64,000 bases of DNA from an uncultured Verrucomicrobia subdivision 3 bacterium (GCA_903865745.1 CAIPKV010000059.1:69487-133486); one strand, 5' to 3'; positions 7,980-62,775 are shown, counted from the first letter of the stretch. The notes: generated by a model not told the origin, from the letters alone. Numbers and translations: made by a program.

Positions 7980-8597
7980 CTACGTGCTCATGTGGCTGAC
8001 TGACTCGCTCCATTCGCTGCGCTGGTTGCCCACGCCCAATACGCGGATGCGGATGCCATATAACTGGCCGGGCACGAGGCCTGCCAGCACGATATTATGC
8101 GGGTCGGTGAAGTTTTCCCAATGGCCCCAAACGCCTGCCACCGTGCTGATTTCCACTTGATACGTCCACGCCTCCGGGTCGATTACCACCGTGAGACCGA
8201 GCTTGGTGGAGGCCACGTTGGCGATGGCGGTGATGGAGGAACCCGTGACAATCGACGCATTATGGGTCAGGTTGGCAAGCTCGAAGCCGGAGGAGAGAAT
8301 GGTTTCCGCATCATTCTGGGCAATGTTTTCGACATAGTTGGCTTGCGTATCCATTTGCCCGATGACCAGCGCTTCGAGGATGTGCTTGTGCTCCGTATCG
8401 GCCATGGTGCCTTGCTCCGTTTTCACCGTGGCGGCAATCAGGTCTTTAGCCGTGGTATCCATCAGCGCCGGGTCTACGTCCGGCTTGATGAATTTGATGT
8501 TGCCGTTCATTTTGCCACTCACCGCCAGGGATTTGTTGGCGAGCGGTGCGCCCGTGAGCAGCCGATACGCGCGTTTGATTTTGTTTTTAGTTTTCAT
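7980..8597 (-). CDS. Small protein with helical N-domain and C-terminal FN3-like domain (family member P1)
   Basis: This 205-aa ORF has a C-terminus with an FN3 signature: WTYQVEISTVAGVWGHWENFTDPHNIVLAGLVPGQLYGIRIRVLGVGNQRSEWSESV. It has the same length and architecture as the ORF at 32232-32852 (..FSGLIPGQIYCVQVSVAGTAGTSDWSAW..). The antisense 197-aa ORF at 8097-8690 has no recognisable features. Confidence 0.6.
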   Translation of the reverse strand: MKTKNKIKRAYRLLTGAPLANKSLAVSGKMNGNIKFIKPDVDPALMDTTAKDLIAATVKTEQGTMADTEHKHILEALVIGQMDTQANYVENIAQNDAETILSSGFELANLTHNASIVTGSSITAIANVASTKLGLTVVIDPEAWTYQVEISTVAGVWGHWENFTDPHNIVLAGLVPGQLYGIRIRVLGVGNQRSEWSESVSHMST

Positions 8598-8719
8598 AAT
8601 CAGAAGTTTCCCGTCGTCTACTCAATGAACGTTCCGGCGAAACCCCCGATGCGAGCGCGTTGGATTGTTAATTGCTACCTACTGTGTTAACAGTCTGCAA
8701 CCCCACGTCAATGGCAATC

Positions 8720-9120
8720 ACGACCTTTCGGGCAGATATATTTTATGCCAGGCGGAATGAAATTGACGATGCTTCCAGCCAAGTTGACTGCAAGCGCAGT
8801 GACTTGACCGATTAGCGCGGCCACAAAACCTGCCAGCCACGGCAGATTTACCGCCGTCGGCATGACGGCGACGACAGTCGGTGCCACGTTTACTACTCCC
8901 GGCATGGCGATGACTGTAGTCGGCATGACAAACCTTACAGTGTTCGTGACGAACCCTGTAGTCGGGATGACAAACCAAATCTTCGGCAAGGCAAACTCAA
9001 CAGTGAACGGTGGCAAACACTATCTTCGGGATGACAAACCTTACAGTGTTCGTGGCATCGCTTACAGTCGGCGTGGCAAACCCTGCAGTGTTTGTGGCCC
9101 CCAAACGGGCAAAAAGTGGC
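8720..9120 (-). repeat. Array 1: about 19 degenerate tandem units of 21 bp (two units are 22 bp)
   Basis: On the minus strand, units begin GCCAC/GTCAT at 9120, 9098, 9077, 9056, 9035, 9014, 8992, 8971, 8950, 8929, 8908, 8887 and 8866, and continue in register to about 8720. The consensus is GYCAYGMMGACTGTAAGGTTT. The units at 9056 and 8950 match at 20 of 21 positions. Confidence 0.85.
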
Positions 9121-9732
9121 TTTTTCGTCATAAAAACGCATAAAACCCTGAAATTTGCTCTTTTCTCGCTGGCAGATGGTCAAATAGCGACAGTTGCAGC
9201 CGGGGGAATTTAACGCCAAGGCGCGAAGACGCCAAGACGCGGGATGACAGGTGGAGCGAGACCGGCCAATTGGTTCTGGCGAATCCTGAAAAGATCAAAT
9301 TACCAGCCCAAGCTTGTCCGGCTTGCGCAGCCTTGGGTATGAACACTGCGATTCTTTCTACCTAGAATGAATTTTATGATTCAAACAAATCAATTCCGTA
9401 TTCTCTGTGGTTGCCACAGTAGATTTTAGTTTCAGCAATCGAAACCACTGCCAGCTAAGTGGAAAACCCCGATTCGACAACAAAATCTAAAAACGTTCAA
9501 AGTGAACTTTTGGTGACAAAGCCAGAAGTGGACCTTCATTTTAGAATGAAATATTTATAAAATACATAAATTCAATATTTTACAATATATTTTAACGCGT
9601 CATAAAATCGGCGCAGCATGTCCTAAGACATGAAGTTTTTGTTTCGCTAGTCTGTTAGAGTGTTCGGACTTGAAGCCCCACTTGGGTGGGTCAAGCTACG
9701 TAGAAAACCAAAAACCGGAACAAAAAATAAAA

Positions 9733-10434
9733 ATGAAAAATAAAATGTATCAAGCTGCGATACTCGCCGTCCTCGGACTGGCCAGTGTCTCGGCGGTGCA
9801 AGCGGCCTCGTACAATGGCGACTTGCTGATCGGCCTCACCACGCAGAGCGGCAACGACGTGGTCTATGACCTCGGCTCGTACTCCTCCCTCACCTACGGC
9901 GAAACCTGGGATTTGTCCTCGGCCATTTCCGCTGCCGGCCTCTCCCTCACGGGTTCCACGCTCTGGGGTATCATCGGTGCCCAGAACGTCAGCGGCACCC
10001 GTTACGCTTATATCACTGGCAATAGCGCCAACAGCATTCCCGGCATCACGGCTTGGAACAAAATTAATACCGGCGTGGCCACCATTTACAACTCTTTGAG
10101 CACGGCTGGCGCAGGCAATTACGGAACTCCTAGTTCGTCGCTTACCTACAGCTGGAATCAGCAAACGGCCCAAGGCGGTGCCGCCACCGGCACGGCGTTC
10201 TCAGCTGTTTCCGCTAATCCGAACTCGACGGGTTTCAATTACTTTCAAGCAATTTACCAGCAGGTTGCTGGTGGTTCACCGGCTACGGATGTTGGCGGTT
10301 TCAGCCTCTCCTCCGCTGGTGTCTTGACGTTCGAAACCGTTCCGGAGCCCGGCACCTACGCCATGATGGCCGTGGGCGGCGGTTTCCTGATGCTCGTTGG
10401 TCGCAATAAATTTGGTCGCAAACAACAATCCTAA
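9733..10434 (+). CDS. PEP-CTERM-anchored secreted protein
   Basis: It has a signal peptide (MKNKMYQAAILAVLGLASVSAVQA). The C-terminus reads VPEPGTYAMMAVGGGFLMLVGRNKFGRKQQS, which is a PEP motif, a TM helix and a basic tail. The track ORF starts at a TTG at 9670, and the ATG at 9733 is preferred. Confidence 0.8.
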   Translation: MKNKMYQAAILAVLGLASVSAVQAASYNGDLLIGLTTQSGNDVVYDLGSYSSLTYGETWDLSSAISAAGLSLTGSTLWGIIGAQNVSGTRYAYITGNSANSIPGITAWNKINTGVATIYNSLSTAGAGNYGTPSSSLTYSWNQQTAQGGAATGTAFSAVSANPNSTGFNYFQAIYQQVAGGSPATDVGGFSLSSAGVLTFETVPEPGTYAMMAVGGGFLMLVGRNKFGRKQQS

Positions 10435-10485
10435 AAAAACCTAAAACAAAACAAACAAGTAAAATTAGTAAACTAGAAAATTAAT

Positions 10486-11682
10486 ATGAAAATCAACAAT
10501 GCAATCATTACGGCTGCCCTCGCTTTGGGCGTGGCTGGCTCCAGCTTCGGCGGCACCGTTTACATCTCCGGTTCGACGGCTATGCGCGGCACGATTTATA
10601 ACGTGCTGTCTGCGACCAACACCGTTTTCAACGGTATCCCGGCCGTCACGGCTGACAGCACCAGCCCCAGCGGCGCCAATCACATGGCCTTCGTTGGTAC
10701 GCTCAAAGGTGGCAGCGGCACGACCACGATCCTGACCTCCTGGTCCGGTTCTGAAGCCGGTATCGCAAACGTTGCTTCCAATACGGCGACGGCATTTTAT
10801 GCCAGCTTCCTGAATTCCGGCATCAACGTGACCAGCAACTCGGTTTCGGCGCTTAACGCGACCAACTTCACCTACGCCAACTTCCCGGTTGACTTGGCGA
10901 TGGCTGACAACGACATCCAGTACTCACGCACCCCCAGCGCCTATAACTCCTGCGCCCAGGCCGAGGTTGGGATTGTAACGTTCAAATGGGTGCGCAACAA
11001 AGGTCTCTGGACTGGTGCTAACACCAACGTCACGGATTCTCAAGTCGTACAGGCCCTCTCCGGTGGTACGCCGCTCGCCACGTTCACTGGCAATGCGGCT
11101 GACACGAACAGCTGGGTGTACGTCTCCGGTCGCGATAACCAGTCGGGTACCCGCGTGAATGCCTTCGCCAACGCTGGCTATGGTATCTTCACTTCACCGC
11201 ACCAGATCATCCTCAACGGCTCCGGCAACATGATTACCAACGCTGCGTTTGATTCTGCTTACAGCTATTATGCCGGTGACTTCGGTCAGAGCAGCGGCGG
11301 CACCTTGGCCGGCACCTTGACCAACAGCACGACCAGCTCGGCTGATCAGATCGCTGGTTTCACTGGCTTCTCGGTCATTGCTTACCTCGGTTACAACGAC
11401 GCCGCCACGGCTATCGGTGGTGGCGCCACGGAATTGGCCTTCAATGGTGTCGGCTACTCGCCCGCCGCGATCTCCGAAGGCACCTACACCTTCTGGGGCA
11501 ATGAATACATCGTCAAGGCCCACACGGTCGGTTCGACCGATGCGACCGCGGTTTACAACTCCATCATCACCAACACCCCGTCGTTCTGCTATCCTACGGG
11601 CAGCTCGAACCCGAACGGTATCGACCTGACCTGGATGCACAGCACCCGGAACAGCCCGATCTCGGCTCCGGCTCACAACTAA
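10486..11682 (+). CDS. Secreted protein with PstS-like periplasmic-binding fold (PBP-like)
   Basis: It has a signal peptide. The motifs ISGSTAMRG, SWSGSEAGI and SGRDNQSGTRVNAF resemble phosphate-binding-protein-like (PBP_like_2) domains. The assignment is from motif memory only. Confidence 0.5.
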   Translation: MKINNAIITAALALGVAGSSFGGTVYISGSTAMRGTIYNVLSATNTVFNGIPAVTADSTSPSGANHMAFVGTLKGGSGTTTILTSWSGSEAGIANVASNTATAFYASFLNSGINVTSNSVSALNATNFTYANFPVDLAMADNDIQYSRTPSAYNSCAQAEVGIVTFKWVRNKGLWTGANTNVTDSQVVQALSGGTPLATFTGNAADTNSWVYVSGRDNQSGTRVNAFANAGYGIFTSPHQIILNGSGNMITNAAFDSAYSYYAGDFGQSSGGTLAGTLTNSTTSSADQIAGFTGFSVIAYLGYNDAATAIGGGATELAFNGVGYSPAAISEGTYTFWGNEYIVKAHTVGSTDATAVYNSIITNTPSFCYPTGSSNPNGIDLTWMHSTRNSPISAPAHN

Positions 11683-11704
11683 TTTGTAATTAGTTTTTCA
11701 CGCC

Positions 11705-11735
11705 GGCGTGAACCGAGAGGTTCACGCCGGTTTTT
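11705..11735 (+). terminator. Rho-independent terminator after the 10486-11682 gene
   Basis: There is a perfect 10-bp stem, GGCGTGAACC-gaga-GGTTCACGCC, followed by GGTTTTT. Confidence 0.7.
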
Positions 11736-11772
11736 AGTTTCCAGAGATAATTTCGAAGTATAAATTCAAGCC

Positions 11773-12717
11773 ATGAAGACAGCCTTGACCGTATCCGCCC
11801 TGCTGAACCTGGCACTAGCTGGCAGCCTCGTCTTCCTGTTCGCCCAGCGAAAGCAGCCCAGTGAGCGCCCCCTGCCACCGCCCACTGCGGCCGGCGGTGA
11901 ATCAGCACCGGTGGCAACCACCACCGCGCCAGTCGTAGCACCGGTAAAAGCCAAACCTTTTAGCTGGCACGAGTTGGAAGCCTCTGATTACCGCACCTAT
12001 GTCCGCAATCTTCGAAACAGCGGCTGCCCCGAAGCAACCGTGCGCGCCATCGTCACGGCCGATGTAGCGGTCGTTTACCGCCTCAAAACCCATGAACTAG
12101 AACAGAAGTTGGCCGCGCTGGCCAATGGCTCTTGGTCGGTCCAGTTGGCCTCCTATGCCGAGCAGCAGGCATTGAAGGCTGCCCTGCAAAAAATGCCGGC
12201 GGAAGAAAGTTCTGAGGTCGCGTACCTGCTGGGTTTGGCGCCAGCGCCGGTGGCAGCGATCTCGGATGCGAGTAAAGCTTCGGCAATAACGTCGGCGGGT
12301 ACGGATTCGGCCCCAGTGGTACCAGCCATTCGATCGGCTTCGGATTACGCCAGGGCTTCAGCAACAACCGCTGCGGGTGCAGAACTTACCGCCATGCCTT
12401 TGCCAGCTACCGACGGCCAAAACAATCTGGCGGCTAATTCCGTTTCTTACCCCTTGGTTTTCCAAAATGTGGACCTGACTTCATTACATTTAGGCCCCGA
12501 CCAAATGCAGGCCGTCGAAAATCTAAAGCAAAGTTTTGTGAACCAGATTGGCGGTCAAAATCAAAATCCCAATGACCCGGCCTATCGGCAACGTTGGCAG
12601 GAAGCTCAGGATACCGCGGACAATATGTTGCGGGATTTACTGGGTTGGACCGGCTTTCAAAGCTACCAAATTGCGGCCCGAGCAAATCCCAGTACGGCGG
12701 TGCCAGTAACTCCGTAA
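11773..12717 (+). CDS. Hypothetical N-terminally membrane-anchored protein
   Basis: This 314-aa ORF has an N-terminal hydrophobic helix (ALLNLALAGSLVFLF), a Pro/Ala-rich linker and then a globular part. I recognised no family. Confidence 0.5.
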   Translation: MKTALTVSALLNLALAGSLVFLFAQRKQPSERPLPPPTAAGGESAPVATTTAPVVAPVKAKPFSWHELEASDYRTYVRNLRNSGCPEATVRAIVTADVAVVYRLKTHELEQKLAALANGSWSVQLASYAEQQALKAALQKMPAEESSEVAYLLGLAPAPVAAISDASKASAITSAGTDSAPVVPAIRSASDYARASATTAAGAELTAMPLPATDGQNNLAANSVSYPLVFQNVDLTSLHLGPDQMQAVENLKQSFVNQIGGQNQNPNDPAYRQRWQEAQDTADNMLRDLLGWTGFQSYQIAARANPSTAVPVTP

Positions 12718-12753
12718 AGCGATAAGTTGGCCGCGATAATAAACCTTTAGTGC

Positions 12754-13686
12754 CTATTTGGCCGGAGATTTTTCCGTATTTGCTTTGAATTCATCGGCTT
12801 GCCGGATCGCTTCGGCCCGCTCGTCGGCGCTCAATCTTTCTTTATTCATAGGCAGCATGCCCGCCATCAACTCCAGGTAATGTCTTGCCATGCCGACTCG
12901 ATTGCGCAGGGCCAAAGTAAACCATTTGTAAGCTGCCACCGGATCCTTGGCCACCCCCCGGCCGTCCATATAAAGACAGCCGAGGTTTAACATGGCCTGG
13001 CCATTCATATTCTCGGCGGCTACCTGATAACATTGGATGGCTCGATGGATATCCTGAGTTGTTCCGAATCCATTTTCGTACATGAACCCGAGCGAATTTT
13101 GACAAGCTGTACAGCCGTTCGTGGCGGCGATTTGATAATATTTAAAAGCGGTTGCATAGTCTCGGGGGACGCCTTGGTCGCCAAAATAATAAAGATCGCC
13201 CAGGGCAGTTTGTGCTTCCAGTTGATTTTGCGCTGCCGACTTTTGATACCATTTGATGGCCTCGGAAATATTCGGGGCCACCCCACGTCCTGTGGCATAG
13301 CTAACGCCTAAGCTGAATTCAGCCAGCGGGTCCCCTTGCGCGGCTGCCTTTTGAAACCACTGATCAGCAATTTGCGGATCTACTTTTACCCCTTTGCCAC
13401 TAAGGTAATAGCCGCCCAGATCATTCTGGGCGAAGGCGTAACCGCCCGCAGCTGCCTGCTGCATATACTCCGCCGCCTTGGTTATGTCACGCGGCACTCC
13501 GTCGCCTTTGGCATAATGGATGGCCAGAAAGTATTGGGCCTTGGCATCGCCTTGACCGGCAGCTACCAAGGCCGTGACTATGGAGTAGCTTTGCTCGCCT
13601 GCGGCAGCACAAACCGGTATTGAAAATATGGCCAAAACCGAACCAATCATCGCCACCCGCAGGAATTTTATAGCTAAATTTTTCAT
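12754..13686 (-). CDS. Sel1-repeat (SLR) secreted protein
   Basis: It contains tandem Sel1 motifs (AQYFLAIHYAKGDGVPRDITKAAEYMQQAAAGGYAFAQNDLGGYYLSGKGV.. and WFQKAAAQGDPLAEFSLGVSYATGRGV..). The ATG at 13686 gives a signal peptide (MKNLAIKFLRVAMIGSVLAIFSIPVCAAA). The track start at 13797 is probably too far upstream. Confidence 0.85.
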   Translation of the reverse strand: MKNLAIKFLRVAMIGSVLAIFSIPVCAAAGEQSYSIVTALVAAGQGDAKAQYFLAIHYAKGDGVPRDITKAAEYMQQAAAGGYAFAQNDLGGYYLSGKGVKVDPQIADQWFQKAAAQGDPLAEFSLGVSYATGRGVAPNISEAIKWYQKSAAQNQLEAQTALGDLYYFGDQGVPRDYATAFKYYQIAATNGCTACQNSLGFMYENGFGTTQDIHRAIQCYQVAAENMNGQAMLNLGCLYMDGRGVAKDPVAAYKWFTLALRNRVGMARHYLELMAGMLPMNKERLSADERAEAIRQADEFKANTEKSPAK

Positions 13687-15178: not shown

Positions 15179-15199
15179 GCTGACCTTTAGCTTTATTCG

Positions 15200-15233
15200 C
15201 CCCCTGCAAAATTGATTTTTGCAGGGGGTTTTG
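15200..15233 (+). terminator. Rho-independent terminator after the 13997-15178 gene
   Basis: There is a perfect 12-bp stem, CCCCCTGCAAAA-ttgat-TTTTGCAGGGGG, followed by TTTTG. The track start of the next ORF (15212) lies inside this hairpin loop. Confidence 0.75.
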
Positions 15234-15427
15234 TTTATCTAACGCCTTGGTTAATCTGTCGAAGAACCCAAATGCGCCCATTAAAAAGAGTAATATTTGC
15301 GGTTTCGGCGGAATTGGCCGACGCGGTTAACCGGAGCTGTTATGTCGCAGGCTTGCTGGCTGATTGTCACACATTTGTAACCAAGCTGACATGGTTTTGT
15401 AGCGTGGTGTTTGCACCATTGCCCGCC

Positions 15428-17173
15428 ATGCGAAAGAACGAAACGAATCGCCAGGCTGCCTGGCTGACCAGCCTGCTGCTGATTCCGGCGGTTTTATGCG
15501 CAGATAACGCTTTGTGTGCTGATGCTGCCAGCGCCAACAATGCCAGCGATGCGAGCGATCTGCTGTTGAATTTATTTATTGAAAAGGGCTATGTCAGCAA
15601 AGCCGAGGCGGAAAAAGTCAAGGCTGAGGCGGAAAAGCGTCAGGCGGAACTAGATCAATACAAGGCTGAGGCGGAGCAGTACAAGACCGAGACCGAACAG
15701 CTCAAGGCGGATGTGGCCCAACTCAAAGCCAACGAGGAATCGTATCGGACTAATGCCGTACCCAGCTATTTGCCGGCCGCTAAATGGAAAATTAATCCTG
15801 GCGACAAATCTATCGAGCTGTTTGGCGATATCCGGATGCGTTACGAAGACCGCCAAATTCAAGACCCCAAAGGTAACAAGGTAACTTGGGATCGGCTGCG
15901 TTATTCCTTGCGCCTAGGTATGCGGGGAGAGGTCTTTGATGATGTTTATTACGGTTTCCGGTTGGAAACTTCCTCCAACCCGCGCTCGTCCTTCAACACG
16001 TTGGGTACGCCCACCGGCTCGTCGACTGCCCAGTATCCGAATCCGTTCACTAAAAACAATGAGACCTTGAATGTTGGTGAGGCCTATATTGGTTTAAAGT
16101 ATGGTGGTTGGCTGGATGTAGTGATGGGCAAGATGCCCAATCCGCTCTTTACCTCGACGATGGTCTGGAGTCCGGCCATAAGCCCCTCTGGTGCTGCCGA
16201 AACTCTGACCCACGCGGTGGGCGATATGGATTTATCCGTGACCTTGGGCCAGTTCATTTATCAGGCCACCAACCCCAACCAGTCATCGCAAGGGTTTTTG
16301 CCGCAGAACGCGAATAATTCCAGCCAGCCTTTTTTGATGGCCTTCCAAGGCAAGATCGACTATCACCTGACCAAAACGGTAAACTTCAAGGTGGCACCCG
16401 TTTTGTACTATTACACCCGTTATCAAAACGGCCAGAACCCGTCCGCAAATGGTGCTTATTACAGCCCGGACTTTTCGGGAACCTATGTGGGTCAGGGACA
16501 AAAAGTCGGGGTAAATGGTGTGCCGGCTTCCTATAACTTGGCCGGTAGCACTCCGGGCTTTGACGGCTATTATGCGAATCAAACCGGCATCAACGATCTG
16601 TTGGTTCTCGATATTCCTTTGGAAGTCAGCGTAAACCTTAAAAAAGTAAAAGTGCGTTTCTACGGAGATTACGCCCAGAACCTTCAGGGTAAAGAACGTG
16701 CCGATGCCGCGTACAATGCGGCTAATTCATTCTACTTCTCGGACAACGGTCCCGGCGCGGGGCAGATCAACCCGATTAATTCACCCCAAACGCATGATAT
16801 TCGCGCTTATCAGTTTGGCATTGGCGTGGGCAGCACCAATCTCATTTATGGGCCGTCACAAGGATTAGTTTACGGCAACGAATCAAAAAAGAACGCTTGG
16901 GAAGTGCGAACCTACTGGCAGCATATCGAACAATACTCACTGGATCCCAATCTGATTGACTCTGACTTCTTTAATGCCACCGAAAACGAACAGGGCGTCT
17001 ATGCCGCAATTGCCTATGGTTTGTTTGACAATGTGATAGCGACGGTGCGCTACGGCTATGCCCGGCGTATCAATGACCAACTGGGTACTGGTGGCAGCAG
17101 CGGCGATCTTCCGCAAATGAATCCGCTGAACTGCTACAGCATCTTTCAATTTGATCTAGGTGTCAGATTCTAA
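15428..17173 (+). CDS. Porin-like outer-membrane beta-barrel with N-terminal coiled coil
   Basis: The ATG at 15428 gives the signal peptide MRKNETNRQAAWLTSLLLIPAVLCA. It is followed by a KAEAE-rich coiled coil (AEAEKVKAEAEKRQAELDQYKAEAEQYKTETEQLKADVAQLK). The rest shows an alternating beta-strand pattern and ends FQFDLGVRF (terminal Phe). Confidence 0.65.
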   Translation: MRKNETNRQAAWLTSLLLIPAVLCADNALCADAASANNASDASDLLLNLFIEKGYVSKAEAEKVKAEAEKRQAELDQYKAEAEQYKTETEQLKADVAQLKANEESYRTNAVPSYLPAAKWKINPGDKSIELFGDIRMRYEDRQIQDPKGNKVTWDRLRYSLRLGMRGEVFDDVYYGFRLETSSNPRSSFNTLGTPTGSSTAQYPNPFTKNNETLNVGEAYIGLKYGGWLDVVMGKMPNPLFTSTMVWSPAISPSGAAETLTHAVGDMDLSVTLGQFIYQATNPNQSSQGFLPQNANNSSQPFLMAFQGKIDYHLTKTVNFKVAPVLYYYTRYQNGQNPSANGAYYSPDFSGTYVGQGQKVGVNGVPASYNLAGSTPGFDGYYANQTGINDLLVLDIPLEVSVNLKKVKVRFYGDYAQNLQGKERADAAYNAANSFYFSDNGPGAGQINPINSPQTHDIRAYQFGIGVGSTNLIYGPSQGLVYGNESKKNAWEVRTYWQHIEQYSLDPNLIDSDFFNATENEQGVYAAIAYGLFDNVIATVRYGYARRINDQLGTGGSSGDLPQMNPLNCYSIFQFDLGVRF

Positions 17174-32231: not shown

Positions 32232-32852
32232 TCACACTACCATGAGAATGGCCCACGCGCTCCAGTCGCTGGTGCCGGCGGTGCCTGCCACGCTCACTTG
32301 CACACAATAAATCTGTCCGGGAATCAGACCGCTAAACGTCGTGTAGGTCGCCGTGGACTGCTTGGTTTGCAGGATTACATCCGGGTTGGCAGCGAGCGCC
32401 AGCCGCCAATTATGAATGAGCGTGCCATAGACCGGCGCCACGCTGGCATCCAAATCCCCGCTGTAAGTTCCCCGGGAGAGCTCGGGCATCGTCGGTTTGG
32501 GCAGGTCGCCAATACGGAAACGTAGCGGCTTTTGAATGGGAAAATTACTGGTCAGTAGCACCGTGAGGTTGCCGTGACATTCCTCCGTCACATCCAAGGC
32601 GAGTGAGCGGACCAAGGGATAGAGCGCCCGCCGTTTTTGAACTTTAAGCGAAATCGCGCCCCGGGCAAAATCGGACGCCTCCACTAGCGCGCGCTCAAAT
32701 TCAGCCAGCGCCGCCTTGATCAGCAGCAGCAACGCCACCGCTTTGGGATAGGCCGCATTGCCGGTCATGCCGGCGAGGATTTTTTTGATATCCAAGACCA
32801 AATCGGTATCAGTGCGCCGGGTGAGGAAACGAATGGAAGGTTTTACAATCAT
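32232..32852 (-). CDS. Small protein with helical N-domain and C-terminal FN3-like domain (family member P2)
   Basis: This 206-aa ORF is a paralogue of 7980-8597. Its N-terminus is ..ILAGMTGNAAYPKAV...RALYPLVRSLALDV..LLTSNFPIQK. Its C-terminus is ..YTTFSGLIPGQIYCVQVSVAGTAGTSDWSAW. Confidence 0.6.
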   Translation of the reverse strand: MIVKPSIRFLTRRTDTDLVLDIKKILAGMTGNAAYPKAVALLLLIKAALAEFERALVEASDFARGAISLKVQKRRALYPLVRSLALDVTEECHGNLTVLLTSNFPIQKPLRFRIGDLPKPTMPELSRGTYSGDLDASVAPVYGTLIHNWRLALAANPDVILQTKQSTATYTTFSGLIPGQIYCVQVSVAGTAGTSDWSAWAILMVV

Positions 32853-33008: not shown

Positions 33009-33012
33009 CATT

Positions 33013-33285
33013 TCGTCACCTGACCCGCCGCGTAAGCCACTTGGTAAAGCGCCAGTGGATGTTAAAGAAACCCGCTTGCCACCGTTCACAGCCTCGCTGT
33101 CAATTGGCAAAACAAATCCGCCACCTGACATAAGCGCTTTGCCATGTGTCAAAACGACTGACTTAACTTTAAAAACTGCTTTGTCACCTGGCTTAATTAG
33201 GCTGCCACCTGTCAGAGCCGTCGTGGCAGGTGGCAAAATGATGGCGGAACTCATTGCCAAGCCTGTGTCAGGTGGCATCGTGGGG
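33013..33285 (+). repeat. Array 2: 13 degenerate tandem units of exactly 21 bp
   Basis: Units start at 33013 and recur every 21 bp. The core TTGCCACCTGWCA is clearest at 33076, 33118, 33139, 33181 and 33202. Inverted copies lie at 33223 and 33265. The sequence at 33076-33089 is identical to the complement of 9003-9016 in array 1. Confidence 0.8.
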
Positions 33286-47646: not shown

Positions 47647-47795
47647 GAAGAAATTCGCCTAAAGAAACAACCAGTTTAGTAGGTCGCCACTGAAAAGTCC
47701 GGCGCGGCTACCGGAACCGGCGCCGCCCCAATCGCCCATAGATTTGCCATTGCCGCGTCGAAAAACCCATAAATGAGTCCGTTTCACCCTCAAGC

Positions 47796-48026
47796 GCGTA
47801 TTCGTTTGCTACAAACGCATATGCAAATAGACCATCCGCATATGCAAACGTGGCATCCGCATATGCAACTGCGGTATTCGCGTATGCAAATGGGGCAAGT
47901 GCATATGCCATTGGGGCATTCGCATACGCAGATGCTCCAATTGCATATGCGGATGCGACAATCGCATAGGCGATTGCCATAAACAAACACGCGGATGTTC
48001 CAAAGGAACACGCAGTTGCCGTCCCC
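47796..48026. repeat. Array 3: 11 tandem units of exactly 21 bp carrying a GCATATGC palindrome
   Basis: Core starts lie at 47817, 47838, 47859, 47901 and 47943 (perfect GCATATGC). One-mismatch cores lie at 47880, 47922 and 47964. More degenerate units lie at 47796, 47985 and 48006. Confidence 0.9.
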
Positions 48027-48091
48027 GCGTGGGCCAGCCGGTATTCCATATCTGTGTTTCATCTGGGTCCATCTGTGGCTAAAATCCCCGC

Positions 48092-54089: not shown

Positions 54090-54115
54090 TGAACGAATCA
54101 GGGTGGCTTGCTGAT

Positions 54116-57939: not shown

Positions 57940-57985
57940 CGCTTGCCAATTTATACGCTGCGAGACAACTTTCACCAAATTGTTT

Positions 57986-59368
57986 ATGCAATTCAACACC
58001 GCTGTCCTTCGCGCCCGCAGCTATTTCGCGACCGGTGTCACGCGCCCAGTGGTATTTCGGCGGGAACAGTTAAACAAACTTTCCGCCGCGCTTCGACAAC
58101 ATGAGCCAGCTTTGCTTGCCGCACTGCAAGCTGACCTTGGCAAATCACCTTACCAATCGCTGGCTTCCGAACTGGGTCTGGTGCATGCGGAAATCAATCA
58201 CGCCTTGCGCCATTTATCAAGTTGGGCTGCGCCATCGAAGCGGCGCACGCCGTGGCTCGTCGCGCCGGCAGACGGTTGGGTGCAAGTGGAGCCGTTCGGC
58301 GTCGTGTTGATTCTCGGTCCGTGGAATTATCCGGTGCAACTGCTGTTAGCGCCATTGGTCAGCGCCATCGCAGCCGGCAATGCGATTATTCTGAAACCGT
58401 CTGAACTCGCACCGCGCACAGCCGAAGCGCTCAGCATTTTAGTCGCCAAGACTTTTCCGCCGGAATACATCTCGGCAGTCAATGGCGGTTCGGAAGTTGC
58501 CGAGGCGTTGTTGCAGGAAAAGTTCGACAAAATATTTTTTACCGGGAGCGCGCGGGTAGGCCGCCTAGTGATGACGGCGGCGGCTAGGCATTTGACGCCA
58601 GTCACCTTGGAACTGGGTGGCAAATGTCCCGCCATCGTTTGCGCAGACGCAAAGGTGGAACTCGCCGCTCGTCGCATTGCTTGGGGCAAATTTATTGGCG
58701 CTGGTCAAACCTGCGTCGCGCCCGATCACGTTTGGGTTCATCGGAGTATCCGCGGGCCATTTTTAGCGGCGCTTAAAAAAACGCTGCGGGAGTTTTACGG
58801 GGAAGACCCATCTGCCAGTGCCGATTATGGTCGCATCGTCAACCAGCAACATTTTGACCGGCTGCTGAAATACCTCGGGGATGGAAAAGTCTTTCACGGC
58901 GGTGAAAATGACGCGGAGAAATTATATCTCGCACCGACAATTTTAACCGACGTACGGCCAAAGTCGCCGGTGTTGCAGGAAGAAATCTTTGGACCTGTTC
59001 TACCTGTTCTCGAATTTGACGACTTGGACGAAACCTTGACCCAACTGCAAGCTGCCCCCACGCCGCTGGCGTTATATGTATTCACCGAAAATCGTTCGCT
59101 GGAAGACAAAATCCTCAACACCGTGCGCTCCGGCGGCGCGTGTGTGAACGATGTCATCTCGCAAATGGTTGGAACCGGTTTGCCGTTCGGCGGTTTGGGC
59201 GAGAGCGGCTTCGGCAGCTATCATGGGCGCGCCGGATTTGATGCCTTTTCACACCAGCGTTCTGTGCTGCGGCGCGCCACTTGGTTGGATTTACCTTTCC
59301 GTTATCCGCCCGCGCGGCTTGCCATCCCCACCTTGAAACGTGCGCTTCGTTTTCTTCTGCGTGGCTGA
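57986..59368 (+). CDS. Aldehyde dehydrogenase (class-3 / fatty- or carotenoid-aldehyde type)
   Basis: It has the ALDH motifs ELGGKCPAIV and CVAPD (catalytic Cys) plus EEIFGPVLPV. It is divergent from the carotenoid operon. Confidence 0.85.
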   Translation: MQFNTAVLRARSYFATGVTRPVVFRREQLNKLSAALRQHEPALLAALQADLGKSPYQSLASELGLVHAEINHALRHLSSWAAPSKRRTPWLVAPADGWVQVEPFGVVLILGPWNYPVQLLLAPLVSAIAAGNAIILKPSELAPRTAEALSILVAKTFPPEYISAVNGGSEVAEALLQEKFDKIFFTGSARVGRLVMTAAARHLTPVTLELGGKCPAIVCADAKVELAARRIAWGKFIGAGQTCVAPDHVWVHRSIRGPFLAALKKTLREFYGEDPSASADYGRIVNQQHFDRLLKYLGDGKVFHGGENDAEKLYLAPTILTDVRPKSPVLQEEIFGPVLPVLEFDDLDETLTQLQAAPTPLALYVFTENRSLEDKILNTVRSGGACVNDVISQMVGTGLPFGGLGESGFGSYHGRAGFDAFSHQRSVLRRATWLDLPFRYPPARLAIPTLKRALRFLLRG

Positions 59369-59380
59369 TTTACCACCGCT

Positions 59381-60514
59381 TTAATCCACGTTGGGATACG
59401 AGCCGAGGATTTTTACGAAGTTGCAGTGCTTCCCGAGGTGTTGGATGGCTTTCGCCACCTTCGCGTCCTGATAATGTCCGGTGCAGTCAATAAAGAAGAA
59501 ATATTCCCACGCCTTGCGCTTACTCGGGCGGGATTCAATCTTCGTCATGTTGATCTTGAATTTGCGAAATGCGGCAATGGCCTCGTGCAGCGCGCCCGCT
59601 TTGTCCGCCACGCTCAACATTAGGCTGGTGCGGTCATCGCCCGTTGGCGGGCTGCATTGGCGGCCTAGAACGAGAAAACGTGTAACATTAGCGGCATTGT
59701 CCTGAATATTTTTCCCTAAAATCGCCAGCTTGTATTTTTCTGCGGCAAGTTCGGTCGTAATAGCACCAGTGGCGATTTCGGGACCCTTTTTTTCAAGTTT
59801 GACGCCCACATTTGCTTTTTCTGTTTGCCATGATTTAACTGGTTTGCTCGCAATTGCCGCTGACACCGCATTAGAAGTCGTCTCTACAATCACCGCATTA
59901 GGATAATGTTGACGCAACCAATTCCGGCATTGGCCAAAGGTTTGAGGGTGGGCATAAATAGTCGTAATTTTGTCTTTTGGAAAACGACTCGCAAAACAAT
60001 GTGATACCGGTAAAACAATTTGTGAAACTACTTTCAAATCACTATCCACAAACATGTCTAGCGTGTGTGTGACGACACCCTCGGTTGAATTCTCTACCGG
60101 AACCACACCGTAATCAGCATCCTTTTTAGAGACTTCAATGAAAACATCGCCAATTGTTTTTTGTGATGCGTACTGAAGGCTTGAGCCAAAGCGTTTCATT
60201 GCCGCCTGATGTGTAAAGGTTGTCTCTGGTCCGAGATACGCGATGGTCATCGTCTTTTCCAGCGCAAGTGCGCTGGACATGATTTCGCGGTAAATCGCGC
60301 GGAGTTGCTCGTTCGTGATCGGGCCGCTGTTGTGCGAGCAGACGCGGTCGAACACCGTGCGTTCGCGGTGGGGCGCGTAGATTTCCTCACCGGCCGCGAG
60401 CTTGATTTCGCCGATAGCGAGAACGTGGCGGGTGCGCGCGTTGAGCAGTTGGACGATCTGCGTGTCCAGCTTGTCAATCGCCTGACGATGTTCGGAAAGG
60501 CTCATGCCAAGCAA
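59381..60514 (-). CDS. pheA: Bifunctional chorismate mutase / prephenate dehydratase
   Basis: It has an N-terminal CM helix region (IDKLDTQIVQLLNARTRHVLAIGEIK), a PDT domain (IAYLGPETTFTHQAA...) and a C-terminal ACT domain (ESRPSK motif). Confidence 0.88.
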   Translation of the reverse strand: MLGMSLSEHRQAIDKLDTQIVQLLNARTRHVLAIGEIKLAAGEEIYAPHRERTVFDRVCSHNSGPITNEQLRAIYREIMSSALALEKTMTIAYLGPETTFTHQAAMKRFGSSLQYASQKTIGDVFIEVSKKDADYGVVPVENSTEGVVTHTLDMFVDSDLKVVSQIVLPVSHCFASRFPKDKITTIYAHPQTFGQCRNWLRQHYPNAVIVETTSNAVSAAIASKPVKSWQTEKANVGVKLEKKGPEIATGAITTELAAEKYKLAILGKNIQDNAANVTRFLVLGRQCSPPTGDDRTSLMLSVADKAGALHEAIAAFRKFKINMTKIESRPSKRKAWEYFFFIDCTGHYQDAKVAKAIQHLGKHCNFVKILGSYPNVD

Positions 60515-60634
60515 GCATGAAGAATGAAGAATGAAGAATCAAACCTTGTTTCACCGTTGTTTGCTGATCCTCATCGCCTTGAGATGGGGGGTGACGATTG
60601 CGCGGGGGAGCAGCGGTTTTTCTCAGAAAACAAG

Positions 60635-60662
60635 ATTGACTTAAAGCGTTAACAACCTATGC
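60635..60662 (+). promoter_or_regulatory. Candidate sigma-70 promoter for rpsU
   Basis: TTGACT (60635-60640), a 16-nt spacer and TATGCT (60657-60662) lie about 70 nt upstream of the rpsU ATG. This is a pattern match only. Confidence 0.3.
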
Positions 60663-60732
60663 TCCGCATTCCTAAAATTACGCGGGAACTGCCAGTGCAG
60701 TTGTCCCCGCCCCCCGGAAGGAAGTGAGTAGA

Positions 60733-60930
60733 ATGACAGAGATTAAACTGAAAAAAGGCGAACCTGTGGAACGTGCGTTGCGTCGGCTGAAGAAAAAAGT
60801 CGACCGCGAAGGCACTCTCAAAATCGTGCGCAGCCGCCGGCAGTTCGAGAAACCGAGCGCCGTCCGCCGTCGCAAGGAAAAGGTTTCCCGCTTCTCCGCC
60901 ATGCTCGCCGCGCGCCACGCCGACGACTAG
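60733..60930 (+). CDS. rpsU: 30S ribosomal protein S21
   Basis: The sequence is MTEIKLKKGEPVERALRRLKKKVDREGTLKIVRSRRQFEKPSAVRRRKEK. GGAAGGAAG lies upstream. Confidence 0.9.
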   Translation: MTEIKLKKGEPVERALRRLKKKVDREGTLKIVRSRRQFEKPSAVRRRKEKVSRFSAMLAARHADD

Positions 60931-60951
60931 GCCGCGATTTGCATTTCCCGC

Positions 60952-60985
60952 GCCGGGCGTGTCCGCTAGGATGCGCCCGGTTTTT
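60952..60985 (+). terminator. Rho-independent terminator after rpsU
   Basis: The stem is CCGGGCG...CGCCCGG, followed by TTTTT. Confidence 0.55.
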
Positions 60986-60987
60986 CT

Positions 60988-61902
60988 ATGTATTCCTTTT
61001 CAACCTGCTGGAATTCCGCCCGCCACACCGATGGCCGCGCCATGCTGCGTGAGATTCGGGAGCTGGGTTTTGAATATGCTGAATTAAGCCACGGCATCCG
61101 CATCAGCCTCGTTCCAGGTATTCTCGAAGCCGTGCAAGCGGGCGAGATTAAGATTTCCACGCTGCACAATTTCTGTCCCCTGCCAGTGGGCGTTGACAAG
61201 CCGTCGCCGAATCTTTTTGAGTTTTCCTCCGACAAAGAGCGCGACCGTCAGCTCGCCGTGAAGCACACCCTCAACACGTTTAACTTTGCGGTGAAGGTCG
61301 GCGCGCCGCTCGTCGTGCTGCACTTTGGCAGCATGGACCTGAAGGATTACACGGGCAAACTCAAGGAACTCCTCGAACGCGGCGAAAAAGGTTCGCCGAA
61401 AATATTGAAAGTTGTCGCCGAGGCCAATGCCGCGCGCGAGGCGAAGAAGAAGAAAGCCTACGACCATGCCCGCGATACGTTGCGCGAGCTTTATGGCGAA
61501 GCCAAGGCGCGCGGACTAAAGCTAGGCATTGAGATCCGCGAAGCCGTCGAGGAACTGCCCGTTGAATCCGACTTTGCCGCCCTGTTGAAGGAGTTTCCCG
61601 CGCCCGTCGTTTATTACTGGCACGATGTCGGCCACGCGCAGATCAAGTCCGACTTCGGGTTCATCGACCACGCGAAGTTTCTGGCCGAGCGTGCCGACCG
61701 GCTGGCCGGCTTCCACATCCACGACGTGAAATTTCCTGCCCGCGACCATTTTCCACCCGGCGGCGGCGACATTGATTTTGCCGCACTCGCGCCGCTCGTG
61801 AAACCGGAGCACATCAAGGTGTTTGAGTTAAGCCCCAAGGTGCCGGTGGATTCCGTCCGCCCCAGCGTCGCACATCTGAAACGTATCTGGGGCGAGGCAT
61901 AA
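60988..61902 (+). CDS. Sugar-phosphate isomerase/epimerase (xylose-isomerase-like TIM barrel)
   Basis: This 304-aa ORF shows the AP-endonuclease-2/TIM-barrel pattern (FEYAELSHG.., VVLHFGS.., LGIEIRE.., HIHDV). Confidence 0.7.
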   Translation: MYSFSTCWNSARHTDGRAMLREIRELGFEYAELSHGIRISLVPGILEAVQAGEIKISTLHNFCPLPVGVDKPSPNLFEFSSDKERDRQLAVKHTLNTFNFAVKVGAPLVVLHFGSMDLKDYTGKLKELLERGEKGSPKILKVVAEANAAREAKKKKAYDHARDTLRELYGEAKARGLKLGIEIREAVEELPVESDFAALLKEFPAPVVYYWHDVGHAQIKSDFGFIDHAKFLAERADRLAGFHIHDVKFPARDHFPPGGGDIDFAALAPLVKPEHIKVFELSPKVPVDSVRPSVAHLKRIWGEA

Positions 61903-62044
61903 TTAAATAGCTTGCGGTCTCAAATAAATGGCAGAGCATCGGAGCATTCCCCGCTGAATGGCGGGATGTAGTAGGCTGTAATCAAATGTTGGTTTTCGAC
62001 AACGACTCCCTGCCTGCGGGTCTTTGCCGAAGGAGCACAACATT

Positions 62045-62422
62045 ATGAGCTACATCGACCCTGATCAATTGCATGGCGCGCTGGATGGTTTGATCACCTT
62101 CACCGGCAAAAACGCCGCCGCCATCACCGCCGGTGACTTGGATCCCGTCGGTGTTACCACCAAGCTGACGGCCATCCGCGACGGACTCAAAGGCACGAAA
62201 GACATCCGTGACGGAATCAGAACCGAACTGACCACCGCGCAGCAGGCTTTTGCCGGAGCGGCCGCGACTAACTACACCGCCTTTAGCAGCCTGGTGGACG
62301 CCATCTCCGGTGCGTTGGGCAAGACCACGCCGCTCGCCCACCAGGCGTTGAACTACCGGATGCACCTCAACATCCCCGCGCAACATCGTACGCCCGCGCC
62401 CGTTCCGCCGGTTACTGTCTAA
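62045..62422 (+). CDS. Small helical hypothetical protein (P3, possible N-domain-only relative of P1/P2)
   Basis: The ATG at 62045 is preceded by AAGGAG with an 8-nt spacing. The sequence is MSYIDPDQLHGALDGLITFTGKNAAAITAGDLDPVGVTTKLTAIRDGL... A strong terminator follows. Confidence 0.6.
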   Translation: MSYIDPDQLHGALDGLITFTGKNAAAITAGDLDPVGVTTKLTAIRDGLKGTKDIRDGIRTELTTAQQAFAGAAATNYTAFSSLVDAISGALGKTTPLAHQALNYRMHLNIPAQHRTPAPVPPVTV

Positions 62423-62465
62423 GAATGGGACGATTCTTCGCAAGTCATTCAACTTAAGGTAGCAA

Positions 62466-62500
62466 CTGAGCCGCTTATTCAAAAAGCGGCTCAGCTTTTT
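62466..62500 (+). terminator. Rho-independent terminator of the P3 gene
   Basis: There is a perfect 11-bp stem, CTGAGCCGCTT-attcaaa-AAGCGGCTCAG, followed by CTTTTT. Its 3' arm is also the first unit of array 4. Confidence 0.8.
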
Positions 62501-62775
62501 GTAAAAGCGGCGTCGCTTTCGGGAAAAGCGGGTCCGCCTACGGCGACGGCGGGTCGGCTTTTTGGATAAGTGGCTCCGCTTTTCCCGTAGGCGGGACCAG
62601 AGTTGCCGACGGCGGGTTCGCCTTGGCCGACGGCGACGCGGCTTTTGGCAAAGGCGGGTCAGCCTTTTGAATAAGCGGCTCCGCCTTTCCCGACGGCGAC
62701 GTCGCTTTTTGCATAAGCGGGTCCGCCGGTGGCGACGGCGAACCCGCTTTCGCTGCCGGCGAGGCTGGATTGAAG
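62484..62775 (+). repeat. Array 4: 14 tandem units of exactly 21 bp (42-bp super-period) built from small GC hairpin/palindrome units
   Basis: The GCGG/GCGA core lies at 62486, 62507, 62528, 62549, 62570, 62591, 62612, 62633, 62654, 62675, 62696, 62717, 62738 and 62759. All spacings are 21 bp. Confidence 0.9.

Follow-up and report, generated by a model that had tools for sequence, protein, structure and literature searches.

Three of four tandem arrays in a 64,000-nucleotide stretch of DNA from an uncultured Verrucomicrobia subdivision 3 bacterium (the window) are part of conserved modules, each joining an array to a small protein gene, found repeatedly among uncultured Verrucomicrobia. The arrays have a regular period, do not encode protein, are for the most part dyad-symmetric and are coupled to genes over deep divergence, and they combine conserved core positions and spacing with fast unit turnover. 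Arrays A1-A4 match no described repeat class.

Autocorrelation of the whole window in 126-bp windows gave identities above 0.5 at lags 21, 42 and 63 only (maxima 0.71, 0.70 and 0.68, respectively), while the remaining lags between 5 and 63 did not exceed 0.48 (background mean 0.28, sd 0.055). The lag-21 signal sits at approximately 8750-9120, 33010-33285, 47796-48026 and 62482-62775. Re-phasing with shifts permitted resolved 17, 13, 11 and 14 units in A1, A2, A3 and A4, with one 22-bp step in A1 and units of 21 bp throughout the other three. A preliminary description of this DNA had reported four arrays with a strict period of about 21 bp and unrelated units, had counted nearly all units as 21 bp, and had proposed comparing lag 21 with other lags. 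Both analyses bear out the arrays, the units are indeed mutually unrelated, re-phasing left 1-2 exceptions in 55 units, and the comparison of lags across the window leaves 21, 42 and 63 as the sole strong ones. The arrays are as follows.

8741..9097, no strand: array A1, roughly 17 degenerate units of 21 bp, with a single step of 22 bp; plus-strand core ACAGTCGGCATGACAAACC; weak dyad symmetry.
33013..33285, no strand: array A2, 13 units of exactly 21 bp; core palindrome TGnCA-(CC or GG)-TGnCA followed by AAAA; dyad z=5.5.
47796..48026, no strand: array A3, 11 units of exactly 21 bp; palindromic core GCATATGC; dyad z=8.0; solitary, in the divergent trpE-recF spacer.
62482..62775, no strand: array A4, 14 units, each exactly 21 bp; units of the consensus AAAGGCGGGTCCGCTTTTTGT alternate with GACGGCGG units, which gives a 42-bp super-period.

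Arrays of this kind are 230-450 bp long with a period of 21 or 42 bp. Since units within an array are just 50-75% alike, TRF detects only parts of A3 and A4, plus a 64-bp period for A1. The most frequent array 7-mers occur at background frequency elsewhere in each locus. Pile-ups of overlapping ORFs at the arrays are real, lie on both strands and arise because the period equals seven codons, as had been proposed. A fifth lag-21 region (15545-15808), missed by the preliminary description, is a true coiled-coil coding segment within a 653-aa ORF, and we used it as a coding control.

Arrays A1 and A2 accompany genes of one protein family, here termed P, with the following features.

7980..8597, minus strand: P1, 205 aa, an N-terminal helical bundle (residues ~10-102) followed by a C-terminal fibronectin type III (FN3) domain.
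8598..8683, minus strand: conserved leader of P1-type genes, ~80 nt, CAATCAACAATCCAACGCGCTCGCATCGGGGGTTTCGCCGGAACGTTAATTGG.
8684..8711, minus strand: sigma-70-like promoter candidate between A1 and P1, a consensus match aligned in 6 loci.
9098..9170, minus strand: a conserved motif outside the repeats, at the distal end of P1-type arrays, consensus GGGCAAATATCGCGATTTTAGGGGTTTTTAGC in orthologous loci.
32232..32852, minus strand: P2, 206 aa, a distant P1 paralogue with the helical plus FN3 layout, joined to P1 via P0032.

In the window the promoter candidate reads TTGACG, 16 nt, TAACAC, its form in orthologues is TTGACn-16/17-TAAAAn, and it would therefore place A1 upstream of the putative P1 promoter. 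The motif at 9098..9170 marks the upstream limit of the conserved P1-type module, and hairpins resembling terminators are seen where P1-type arrays have their proximal end. The leader, though conserved, yielded no covariation support for a fold. As previously described, A1 and A2 lie upstream of P1 and P2, at measured distances of ~145-250 bp and 161 bp. The description of P1 and P2 as paralogous FN3 genes holds in that they belong to the same family, but they are linked through intermediates only (P0032). Within this one genome, P1 and P2 have unrelated arrays and unrelated N-domains, whereas orthologues retain related units.

Array A4 belongs to a different gene, with its own terminator.

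62045..62422, plus strand: P3, 125 aa, an all-helical small protein with the invariant N-terminus MSYIDPDQLHG and a Pro-rich tail.
62466..62504, plus strand: intrinsic terminator of P3, an 11-bp stem (62466-62494) followed by CTTTTTGT; its 3' arm is the first A4 unit.

The reported overlap between the start of A4 and the P3 terminator is thus real, and A4 and the arrays 3' of P3 homologues are orthologous down to single units. A loose resemblance of P3 to the P1/P2 N-domain had also been suggested; hhalign gave it a probability of 0.2%, both for the single sequence and for profile against profile (22 sequences against 23). The claim that the arrays adjoin one small protein family is accordingly not supported, as the P3 family appears not to be detectably related to the P1/P2 family and its array lies 3' rather than 5' of the gene.

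In other genomes the coupling of arrays to these genes proved far stronger than the preliminary description could tell. A clear 21/42-bp array was found 150-700 bp upstream in 19 of the 22 loci encoding P1/P2 homologues, and two further loci have a degenerate array, even though identity goes down to ~25% and the unit sequence differs lineage by lineage. All five P3-family loci of other genomes carry an A4-type array directly after the stop codon or at the terminator, and the array is kept regardless of the genes downstream of it, which differ among loci. The control, 254 kb around recF in 61 related contigs, contained no lag-21 array (0/61 loci). The enrichment beside small genes that had been suspected is therefore present.

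The period at P and P3 loci of other genomes is 21, 42, 63 or 84 bp; loci L010, L013 and L016 depart from multiples of 3, with periods of 41, 82 or 83 bp. At one P locus, L011, ten units of 7 bp were seen, and an A/T harmonic of 7 bp is present in several arrays. Site architecture among the arrays of P proteins includes 8-bp palindromes, 5-N7-5 arrangements and direct repeats. For two relatives at 91% identity, divergence was 16% in the array against 6% in coding sequence, implying that much array sequence is weakly constrained. The proposed comparison of unit numbers revealed variation by whole units, namely an 84-bp difference in array length between L004 and L023 and a range of 12-16 units in P3-type arrays. 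Across P3-type arrays, spacing is 21 bp throughout 54 units, yet whole-unit indels occur. The cores of these arrays (GCG and CGC) are variable in 18-36% of columns as compared with 50-100% for linkers, and the cores are thus close to codon positions 1 and 2 of P3 (28%).

A3 has neither a P- nor a P3-type partner gene beside it, and its region has no second match within the 64-kb window or the other loci compared. It lies in the following segment.

47647..48030, no strand: lineage-specific segment bearing A3, replaced by an array-free spacer of ~85 bp in L028, L085 and L026.

Relatives at 88-92% identity have this short intergenic spacer and lack A3, which is a solitary insertion confined to this lineage. 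Absence of arrays at syntenic positions, which would have counted against a conserved element, is thus seen for A3, while P and P3 loci mostly keep theirs. The recent, partnerless gain of A3 fits the view that arrays are selfish or neutral satellite-like expansions, arising at hairpins such as terminators, kept up through slippage and quasi-palindrome correction, and simply hitch-hiking beside small genes. That A4 seems grown from a terminator and that arrays outpace flanking DNA in evolution fit the same account, and template-switch repair could yield palindromy without selection. However, relative position is kept at ~25% protein identity and in two unrelated families, the control DNA is free of arrays, and neutral expansion would not predict a common period in unrelated sequences. 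Furthermore, P3 orthologues at 65-82% identity have arrays with unit-by-unit orthology, conserved cores and no small indels. We consider a satellite origin very unlikely.

The arrays are non-coding. No frame is open throughout four orthologous P3-type arrays, those of the window, L106, L107 and L109 being open in different frames. Variable sites in P3-type arrays fall evenly by phase modulo 3 (39/41/45, p=0.56), whereas the P3 coding sequence gives 31/30/68 (p=1.7e-8) and the coiled-coil control (15590-15760) also shows the coding pattern; the suggested check of whether substitutions respect a reading frame is thereby answered in the negative. Motif centres switch between GG and CC inside arrays, and gene callers mostly leave the arrays uncalled. 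Nevertheless, a period of seven codons might reflect heptad-repeat small proteins (e.g. TIV-, AYA- or GSAF-type) co-expressed with P or P3, since each array is spanned by ORFs of 86-124 aa, a 3-bp purine/pyrimidine harmonic is strong in P1-type arrays, and one phase is more variable in some arrays. This coding interpretation is largely refuted, and we regard it as extremely improbable: stops or frameshifts interrupt A1, A4, L020, L021, L106, L107 and L013 (frameshifts in A1 and L021, a stop in L020), orthologues share no frame, and periods of 41 and 83 bp occur. In addition, both strands would encode identical peptides because the array DNA is palindromic, codons are unchanged across genomes that differ in GC content, and the array ORFs have no relatives in Pfam or protein databases. 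Two possible meanings of 21 bp had been offered, two helical turns or seven codons; with coding rejected and periods of 41 or 83 bp in degenerate relatives, the former is favoured. Whatever their function, ORFs called within such arrays should be annotated as spurious.

Most of the arrays are dyad-symmetric, an observation that goes beyond the preliminary description: 15 of 19 match their own reverse complement above a column-permuted null. A4 and A3 fold far better than shuffled sequences (z=-8.5 and -8.3), whereas A1 and A2 are only marginally better (z=-2.5 and -2.0). The array might accordingly work as RNA, transcribed and folded as one long, imperfect hairpin or as many small ones in series, an RNA that is the partner or regulator of the adjacent protein; P modules would then be type III toxin-antitoxin-like, and P3 arrays a stack of terminators or 3' stabilisers. 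The array-then-gene order of P modules resembles ToxI-ToxN, P1-type arrays have the proximal terminator-like hairpins, the first A4 unit lies within a canonical terminator, and T-runs in A4 units are longer on the P3 strand. On the other hand, the hairpin arms are 77% complementary, just as column shuffling predicts (z=-0.9), which means that compensatory changes are lacking, and pairing next to the loop is disrupted in 20-26% of units. Hairpins need no strict 21-nt spacing, the modest likeness among units differs from that of processed repeat RNAs, P is not ToxN-like, and a search of Rfam gave no match. In P1-type loci, moreover, the promoter-like site separates array from gene. With that site on one side and A4 starting at the P3 terminator on the other, the arrays probably lie outside the transcription unit. 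We therefore judge an RNA role unlikely; the palindromes would act as half-sites rather than stems.

Our preferred reading, held tentatively and at somewhat less than even probability, is that the array, as a cis element in helical phase, is partner to the small protein encoded beside it and serves as a platform for cooperative binding. Each array is a non-coding run of 10-19 short sites, usually dyad-symmetric and two helix turns apart (21 bp, or 20-21 bp in degenerate cases), and each array type is inherited with one small lineage-specific protein gene. P-type modules run from array through putative promoter and leader to the gene for the helical-bundle plus FN3 protein, and P3-type modules from the gene for the small helical protein through the terminator to the array. 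The array would likely be the nucleic-acid partner of the neighbouring gene's product, P or P3, which may bind cooperatively and sequence-specifically along one face of the DNA; the complex might serve in autoregulation, in silencing or insulation, or as a scaffold. The protein and the sequence of its array would co-diverge, which may allow paralogous modules in one cell to operate without cross-talk.

Several findings weigh against a binding platform. A DNA- or RNA-binding domain is not recognisable in either P or P3. With Foldseek, the matches of P are confined to FN3, and P3 has none at E<=0.001 (its best E is 1.9). P1, P2 and P3 have no match in the HMM libraries searched, and P and P3 proteins, judged by eye from their sequences, do not appear basic overall. 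It would be unusual for a single DNA-binding fold to go with site architectures as varied as those in the arrays of the P family, and A3 lacks a partner gene. An autoregulator would also predict a copy of the array motif at the promoter. In 9 of 12 loci, the stretch separating array from gene has no array motif; the exceptions are L005, with two overlapping matches ~10 bp before the start, and L006 and L012, with single matches ~290-335 bp upstream.

Alternatively, the arrays could be structural or regulatory DNA with no dedicated binder, exerting an effect through shape or topology (phased A-tracts, cruciform or slipped structures, supercoil buffering) or serving as a spacer, resizable in whole helical-phase steps, that insulates a small gene or tunes its promoter. 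Many units across the arrays carry one A- or T-tract per 21 bp, unit number shifts by whole units between close relatives, sequence diverges freely while the period is kept, and P-type arrays sit between the conserved distal motif and the promoter. However, A-tracts are absent in L023, L012 and L114, the 10.5-bp A/T harmonic is weak (median power 0.4), and the A- and T-tracts of A4, compared by hand from its unit consensus, are out of helical phase. Bending leaves the conserved GC-rich palindromic cores unexplained, and P3 arrays lie downstream of the gene, away from its promoter. A purely structural role thus seems quite unlikely.

If the binding platform is correct, these loci would add to bacterial chromosomes a new family of proteins paired with cognate DNA arrays, would use folds (FN3 plus helical bundle; small helical protein) not known to read nucleic acid, and would offer a natural case of paralogous nucleoprotein systems that stay separate by co-divergence. 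The broadest form of the proposal, which we consider possible but doubtful, is that Verrucomicrobia carry undescribed two-component chromosomal modules in which a small protein assembles on its private phased array of 10-19 sites, the pairs co-diversifying across many paralogous copies per genome. This would be a nucleoprotein system, dispersed and setting its own specificity, unrelated to replication, partition, CRISPR or toxin-antitoxin, with a new kind of nucleic-acid-binding protein. The arrays are in any case a marker for two uncharacterised protein families, and P1, P2 and P3 with their own arrays form a simple test set for binding work.

Among known systems, the arrays most resemble iteron or centromere-like arrays, and they fall within the definition of no known family; their earlier separation from CRISPR, REP/MITE and classical plasmid iterons stands. 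Plasmid iterons (R6K gamma origin, RK2, pPS10) are likewise head-to-tail repeats of ~17-22 bp placed two turns apart, often in 5-8 or more copies, that adjoin the gene of their binder and diverge between replicons for specificity, and the nearly invariant 21-bp period provides the same helical phasing. In contrast to iterons, the present loci have no winged-helix Rep, DnaA box, AT-rich region or plasmid context, several modules lie within 64 kb of chromosome among housekeeping genes, the 11-19 units are mostly palindromic rather than direct, and the promoter carries no inverted half-site. No Rep family match was obtained for P (helical bundle plus FN3) or P3 (all-helical). Centromeres (parC of R1/pSK41, sopC of F, tubC) are also arrays of short sites, sopC having 43-bp units with an inverted repeat, and lie directly upstream (parC) or downstream (sopC) of the gene for a small adaptor that covers the sites cooperatively; the two placements correspond to P- and P3-type modules. 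The adjacency is conserved at P and P3 loci, where the binder is putative; however, the adaptor candidates here are not RHH or HTH proteins, the modules are chromosomal, multi-copy and dispersed, and no ParA, ParM or TubZ NTPase was found among neighbours in the window and 12 related loci.

Type III toxin-antitoxin systems (ToxIN, CptIN, TenpIN) share with P modules a tandem array of lineage-specific repeats directly upstream of a ~200-aa gene. Their repeats, 34-45 nt long, come in 2-6 copies that are nearly identical, and a terminator, not a promoter, precedes the gene, whereas P modules have the conserved promoter-like site at this point and P3 modules have the array downstream. A ToxN/AbiQ/CptN endoribonuclease was rejected for P on the basis of its fold and the absence of Pfam and PADLOC matches. 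The omega-repressor heptad operators (pSM19035) and MetJ metbox arrays are similar cooperative runs of short direct or inverted sites upstream of promoters, but comprise 2-10 contiguous boxes of 7 or 8 bp bound by a ribbon-helix-helix protein; the present arrays have longer periods and extend over 230-450 bp, and an RHH protein is not evident. REP/BIME elements of enterobacteria and pseudomonads are intergenic clusters of short, imperfect palindromes, which often lie immediately 3' of a gene and overlap its terminator. Unlike the present arrays, REPs form one sequence family with hundreds of genomic copies, are linked to RAYT transposases and lack strict 21-bp phasing; they were rejected because units are private to each array and do not recur elsewhere in the sampled DNA (64 kb of this genome and the loci compared).

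A CRISPR array was rejected as well: the degenerate units abut head to tail without spacers, a PADLOC scan of P1, P2 and P3 gave no match, and cas genes are not among the neighbours in the window. These neighbours include two-partner secretion genes and genes for a PEP-CTERM protein, a Kdo transferase and a citrate transporter, along with trpE, recF, pheA and a TIM-barrel gene, and A4 is followed by cca, recognised by eye from its translated start.

When the window was scanned for self-similarity at each lag (126-bp windows), identity above 0.5 was reached only at lags 21, 42 and 63, with maxima of 0.71, 0.70 and 0.68, respectively; the remaining lags from 5 to 63 stayed at or below 0.48, and the background was 0.28 (sd 0.055). 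The lag-21 signal was located at approximately 8750-9120, 33010-33285, 47796-48026 and 62482-62775, corresponding to four arrays (A1-A4), listed here with the small genes beside them:

7980-8597, minus strand: P1, small gene next to A1
8741-9097: A1, array of 17 units
32232-32852, minus strand: P2, small gene next to A2
33013-33285: A2, array of 13 units
47796-48026: A3, array of 11 units
62045-62422, plus strand: P3, small gene 5' of A4
62482-62775: A4, array of 14 units, with cca on its 3' side

These unit counts come from re-phasing with shifts allowed, which left a single 22-bp step, in A1. The consensus units of the four arrays are mutually unrelated, and thus the scan and the re-phasing bear out the preliminary description, which had claimed four arrays of unrelated units on one strict 21-bp period. 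Since the units are 50-75% alike, TRF detects mere fragments of the arrays. A fifth lag-21 region (15545-15808) was used as a coding-heptad positive control. It truly encodes a coiled coil (AEAEKVKAEAEKRQAELDQYKAEAEQYK...) and lies close to the N-terminal end of a 653-aa ORF (15212-17173, plus strand), which we take from its sequence alone to be porin-like, and its third codon positions show the expected variability.

We identified 32 homologues of P1, all in uncultured Verrucomicrobia-type metagenome genomes, and a profile search joined P2 to the same family (the P family) via P0032. In a full HMMER scan, the N-domain of P1 gave only 36 clusters (50% identity) at E<=0.001, most of them about 190-255 aa, one of 305 aa and about ten shorter. 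Among the 22 P loci with readable upstream DNA, 19 have a clear array on the same side, 150-700 bp upstream, a degenerate 41/82-bp array is present in two further loci, and one locus has no array. The periods of the 19 arrays are 21, 42, 63 or 84 bp, apart from one 7-bp array. No lag-21 array was found in 61 recF-centred control contigs of related bacteria (254 kb), and against this zero the 19 of 22 P loci uphold the proposed association of arrays with small genes. Identity between P proteins drops to about 25%, and the unit sequence is different in every lineage.

Among the loci fetched from related genomes (L numbers), three carry degenerate arrays of a CTGCAA/TTGCAG motif upstream of P homologues (L010 4370-4520, L013 2400-2900, L016 4215-4470). 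The motif recurs every 20-21 bp, and the best lags are 41, 82 and 83; the L016 and L013 arrays score well over the shuffled maxima (0.56 and 0.62 vs <=0.47), and the L010 array marginally so (0.495 vs 0.476). The 7-bp array, ten GTGACAM units upstream of a distant P homologue (L011 4612-4685), is a hint that the 21-bp period may be built from 7-bp sub-units. Several arrays (A3, A4-type, L006, L009, L114) have a strong A/T harmonic at 7 bp.

At the P1-type loci, a candidate promoter (consensus match TTGACn-16/17-TAAAAn) and an 80-nt leader lie between the array and the gene. Both are strongly conserved in six loci (window 8598-8711, minus strand). The leader shows no covariation, and its modest RNAalifold hairpin is free of compensatory changes. 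The far edge of the P1-type arrays is marked by a conserved non-repeat motif (window 9098-9170; L004 4545-4610; L023 2400-2470), which contains the perfect palindrome AAATCGCGATTT and, directly after it, GGGGTTTTTAGC; the homology shared by L004 and L023 sets in just upstream of the motif. No operator copies of the array motifs were found near promoters.

P3 has 39 homologues. The preliminary description had noted a loose likeness of P3 to the N-domain of P1 and P2; hhalign (sequence against profile and profile against profile) gave a probability of 0.2%, that is, no detectable relation, and P3 was removed from the P family. In every P3 locus fetched, an A4-type array begins at the terminator just past the stop codon, and the gene downstream of it varies (apolipoprotein N-acyltransferase-like, chalcone-synthase-like, or cca in the window). 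The A4-type arrays are orthologous unit for unit, and three lineages retain an unusual marker unit, CCAGAGTTG. Residues 1-11 of P3 (MSYIDPDQLHG, 62045-62080) are effectively invariant across 22 homologues: nine of the 11 positions never change, while Q8 and L9 are altered in two sequences each. The corresponding codons vary synonymously, so the constraint acts on the protein. Just past A4, four CGTAAAT heptanucleotides (62793-62820) run right up to the start codon, ATG, of the gene for the CCA-adding enzyme (62821).

A3 is solitary. It is unchanged in all near-identical strains, no counterpart was found in relatives (80 recF loci searched), and its flanks have no match elsewhere. The trpE-recF spacer, in which A3 lies in the window, is array-free and about 85 bp long in three relatives at 88-92% identity. 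In a fourth (L027 1910-2500) it is occupied by an unrelated insert of about 590 bp that contains small ORFs, and the spacer thus looks like an indel hot spot.

ORFs on both strands cover every array, as might be expected if the arrays encoded heptad proteins. Such ORFs are the expected by-product of a period of seven codons, the account already given in the preliminary description, which our results corroborate. The A1 ORF is continuous only with a frameshift; in A4 all frames carry stops except one arginine-rich frame, a shadow ORF (61982-63571, minus strand); and array frames are interrupted in L020, L021 and L013. The best coding test was provided by four orthologous A4-type arrays (window, L106, L107 and L109), in which no frame is open throughout. 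Their variable columns are distributed over the three phases as 39/41/45 (p=0.56), compared with 31/30/68 (p=1.7e-8) for the adjoining P3 coding sequence, and the proposed check for a reading frame behind array substitutions therefore finds no codon phase. Rare codons stay identical in the arrays where coding sequence would drift, the motif centre flips between GG and CC inside single arrays, and in three degenerate relatives the period is 41, 82 or 83 bp, none of them divisible by three. Pfam matches of array ORFs were at chance level (E 0.011-0.16, far below curated cut-offs), and the A3 ORF found no relative, not even itself, among 5.8 billion clustered proteins. The ORF comparison, the codon-phase tests and the 41/83-bp periods led us to reject coding heptad proteins, and we regard any protein encoded by the arrays as scarcely credible. 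The P1-type arrays (A1, L004, L020, L021, L023, L025) show a strong 3-bp purine/pyrimidine periodicity, RNY-like and self-complementary (e.g., ACG ATC GTC), which keeps one frame per strand open without codon-phase substitution bias.

The majority of the arrays come close to their reverse complement. Dyad symmetry exceeds a null of column-permuted units in 15 of 19 arrays (z 2.6-8.0), and the coding control scores z=1.9. The array cores are short palindromes:

A2: TGnCA-NN-TGnCA
A3: GCATATGC
A4: GCGG-NN-CCGC, with A- and T-runs on the flanks
P1 orthologues: ACGATCGT
L005: 5-N7-5 and 6-N5-6

A few arrays (A1, L012, L020 and, by eye only, L115) have direct repeats. An array acting as an RNA partner or a terminator stack would suit the very strong folding of A3 and A4 as single strands (z about -8.4); A1 and A2 fold marginally better than shuffles. 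Across 54 A4-type units, 77% of cells show pairing between the arms, which equals the column-shuffled expectation (z=-0.9), so that a deviation in one arm has no compensating change in its partner. The arms behave like independent half-sites, unlike selected RNA stems. Hairpins under selection were rejected on this lack of covariation, and no known RNA families or tRNAs were found; we consider an RNA role unlikely. Somewhat less probable still is a shape or topology element. The 10.5-bp A/T harmonic, tested as a sign of DNA curvature, is weak in the arrays.

The spacing in the 54 A4-type units is never other than 21 bp. Their core positions vary 18-36%, compared with 28% for codon positions 1 and 2, and the linkers are almost free to vary. 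The suggested comparison of unit numbers across orthologous loci showed that whole units are gained and lost. L004 and L023 represent one locus (91% identity), at which divergence is 6% in the P coding sequence, 4% in the leader and 16% in the array, where there is also an 84-bp (four-unit) indel. Such turnover would suit a hitch-hiking satellite, an explanation we find improbable; taken with the constraint on core and phase, it points to arrays that last as structures and are otherwise fast-changing. Mobility of the P module, suggested by the differing neighbours of P1 homologues, is not borne out, as L004 and L023 are one syntenic locus with a nearby indel.

Features shared by the unrelated arrays are a period close to two turns of the helix, dyad symmetry that is frequent and shows no compensatory change, a position outside the transcription unit, a sequence particular to each lineage and strict coupling to one small gene. 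Our tentative reading, the simplest one and given somewhat less than an even chance, is that the arrays form a cis platform of in-phase sites. A sequence-specific protein would bind these sites cooperatively, the product of the neighbouring gene being the obvious candidate for the binder, and co-divergence of array and protein would keep paralogous modules apart. Caution is advised because site architecture is heterogeneous, a promoter-proximal operator copy is absent, A3 has no partner, and neither P nor P3 looks like a nucleic-acid binder. AlphaFold gave confident and differing models of the two: that of P1 (pLDDT 90.6) combines a helical bundle with FN3, and that of P3 (pLDDT 86.3) has a single very long helix flanked by short ones and a Pro-rich tail that is disordered. 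Foldseek gave generic FN3 matches only for P and no match at E<=0.001 for P3 (best E 1.9). With Pfam, P1 and P2 had sub-threshold FN3-type matches only and P3 had none, and PHROGs gave one weak match in the FN3 region of P2. For P and P3, NCBIfam and PADLOC gave no matches and PDB sequence profiles nothing useful; no informative structural or HMM match beyond FN3 was obtained for P1 or P3.

The logic of a cis platform parallels that of iterons, parC or sopC, and the arrays are not members of those families. Membership tests failed for CRISPR, REP/BIME and plasmid iterons, in agreement with the earlier exclusion of CRISPR, REP/MITE and iteron classes, and likewise for partition centromeres, type III toxin-antitoxin systems and coding heptad repeats. 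A search of the literature on Verrucomicrobia and on bacterial chromosomes yielded no relevant description of intergenic repeats phased at 21 bp, which is weak evidence of absence. We rate the arrays as runs of phased repeats that are coupled to the small gene next to them; that the array-gene modules are something categorically new is a minority prospect, though a real one.

Several further observations concern the surroundings of P genes. An FN3-only remnant of a P gene (L017 1-830) is separated by 80 bp from a preceding 21-bp array, which starts where a PEP-CTERM protein gene ends; its contig was assigned to an alphaproteobacterial bin, so that the case is one of a truncated copy or of an error in binning. 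Ahead of distant P homologues there is an in-frame extension or a short ORF with a W-G-rich segment (L005 4860-5000, L014 4720-4830, L015 4620-4710), and those of L005 and L014 have in common, by eye, a motif FY[DN]xP. Directly 3' of the P1 stop codon is a 9-bp repeat, CTTAGCGAG, in 2.8 copies (7940-7964). Convergent with P1 is a two-partner secretion pair (972-7779), composed of a ShlB/FhaC-type transporter (809 aa) and a TPS-domain exoprotein (1415 aa), and a PEP-CTERM protein gene (9670-10434) is divergent from A1.
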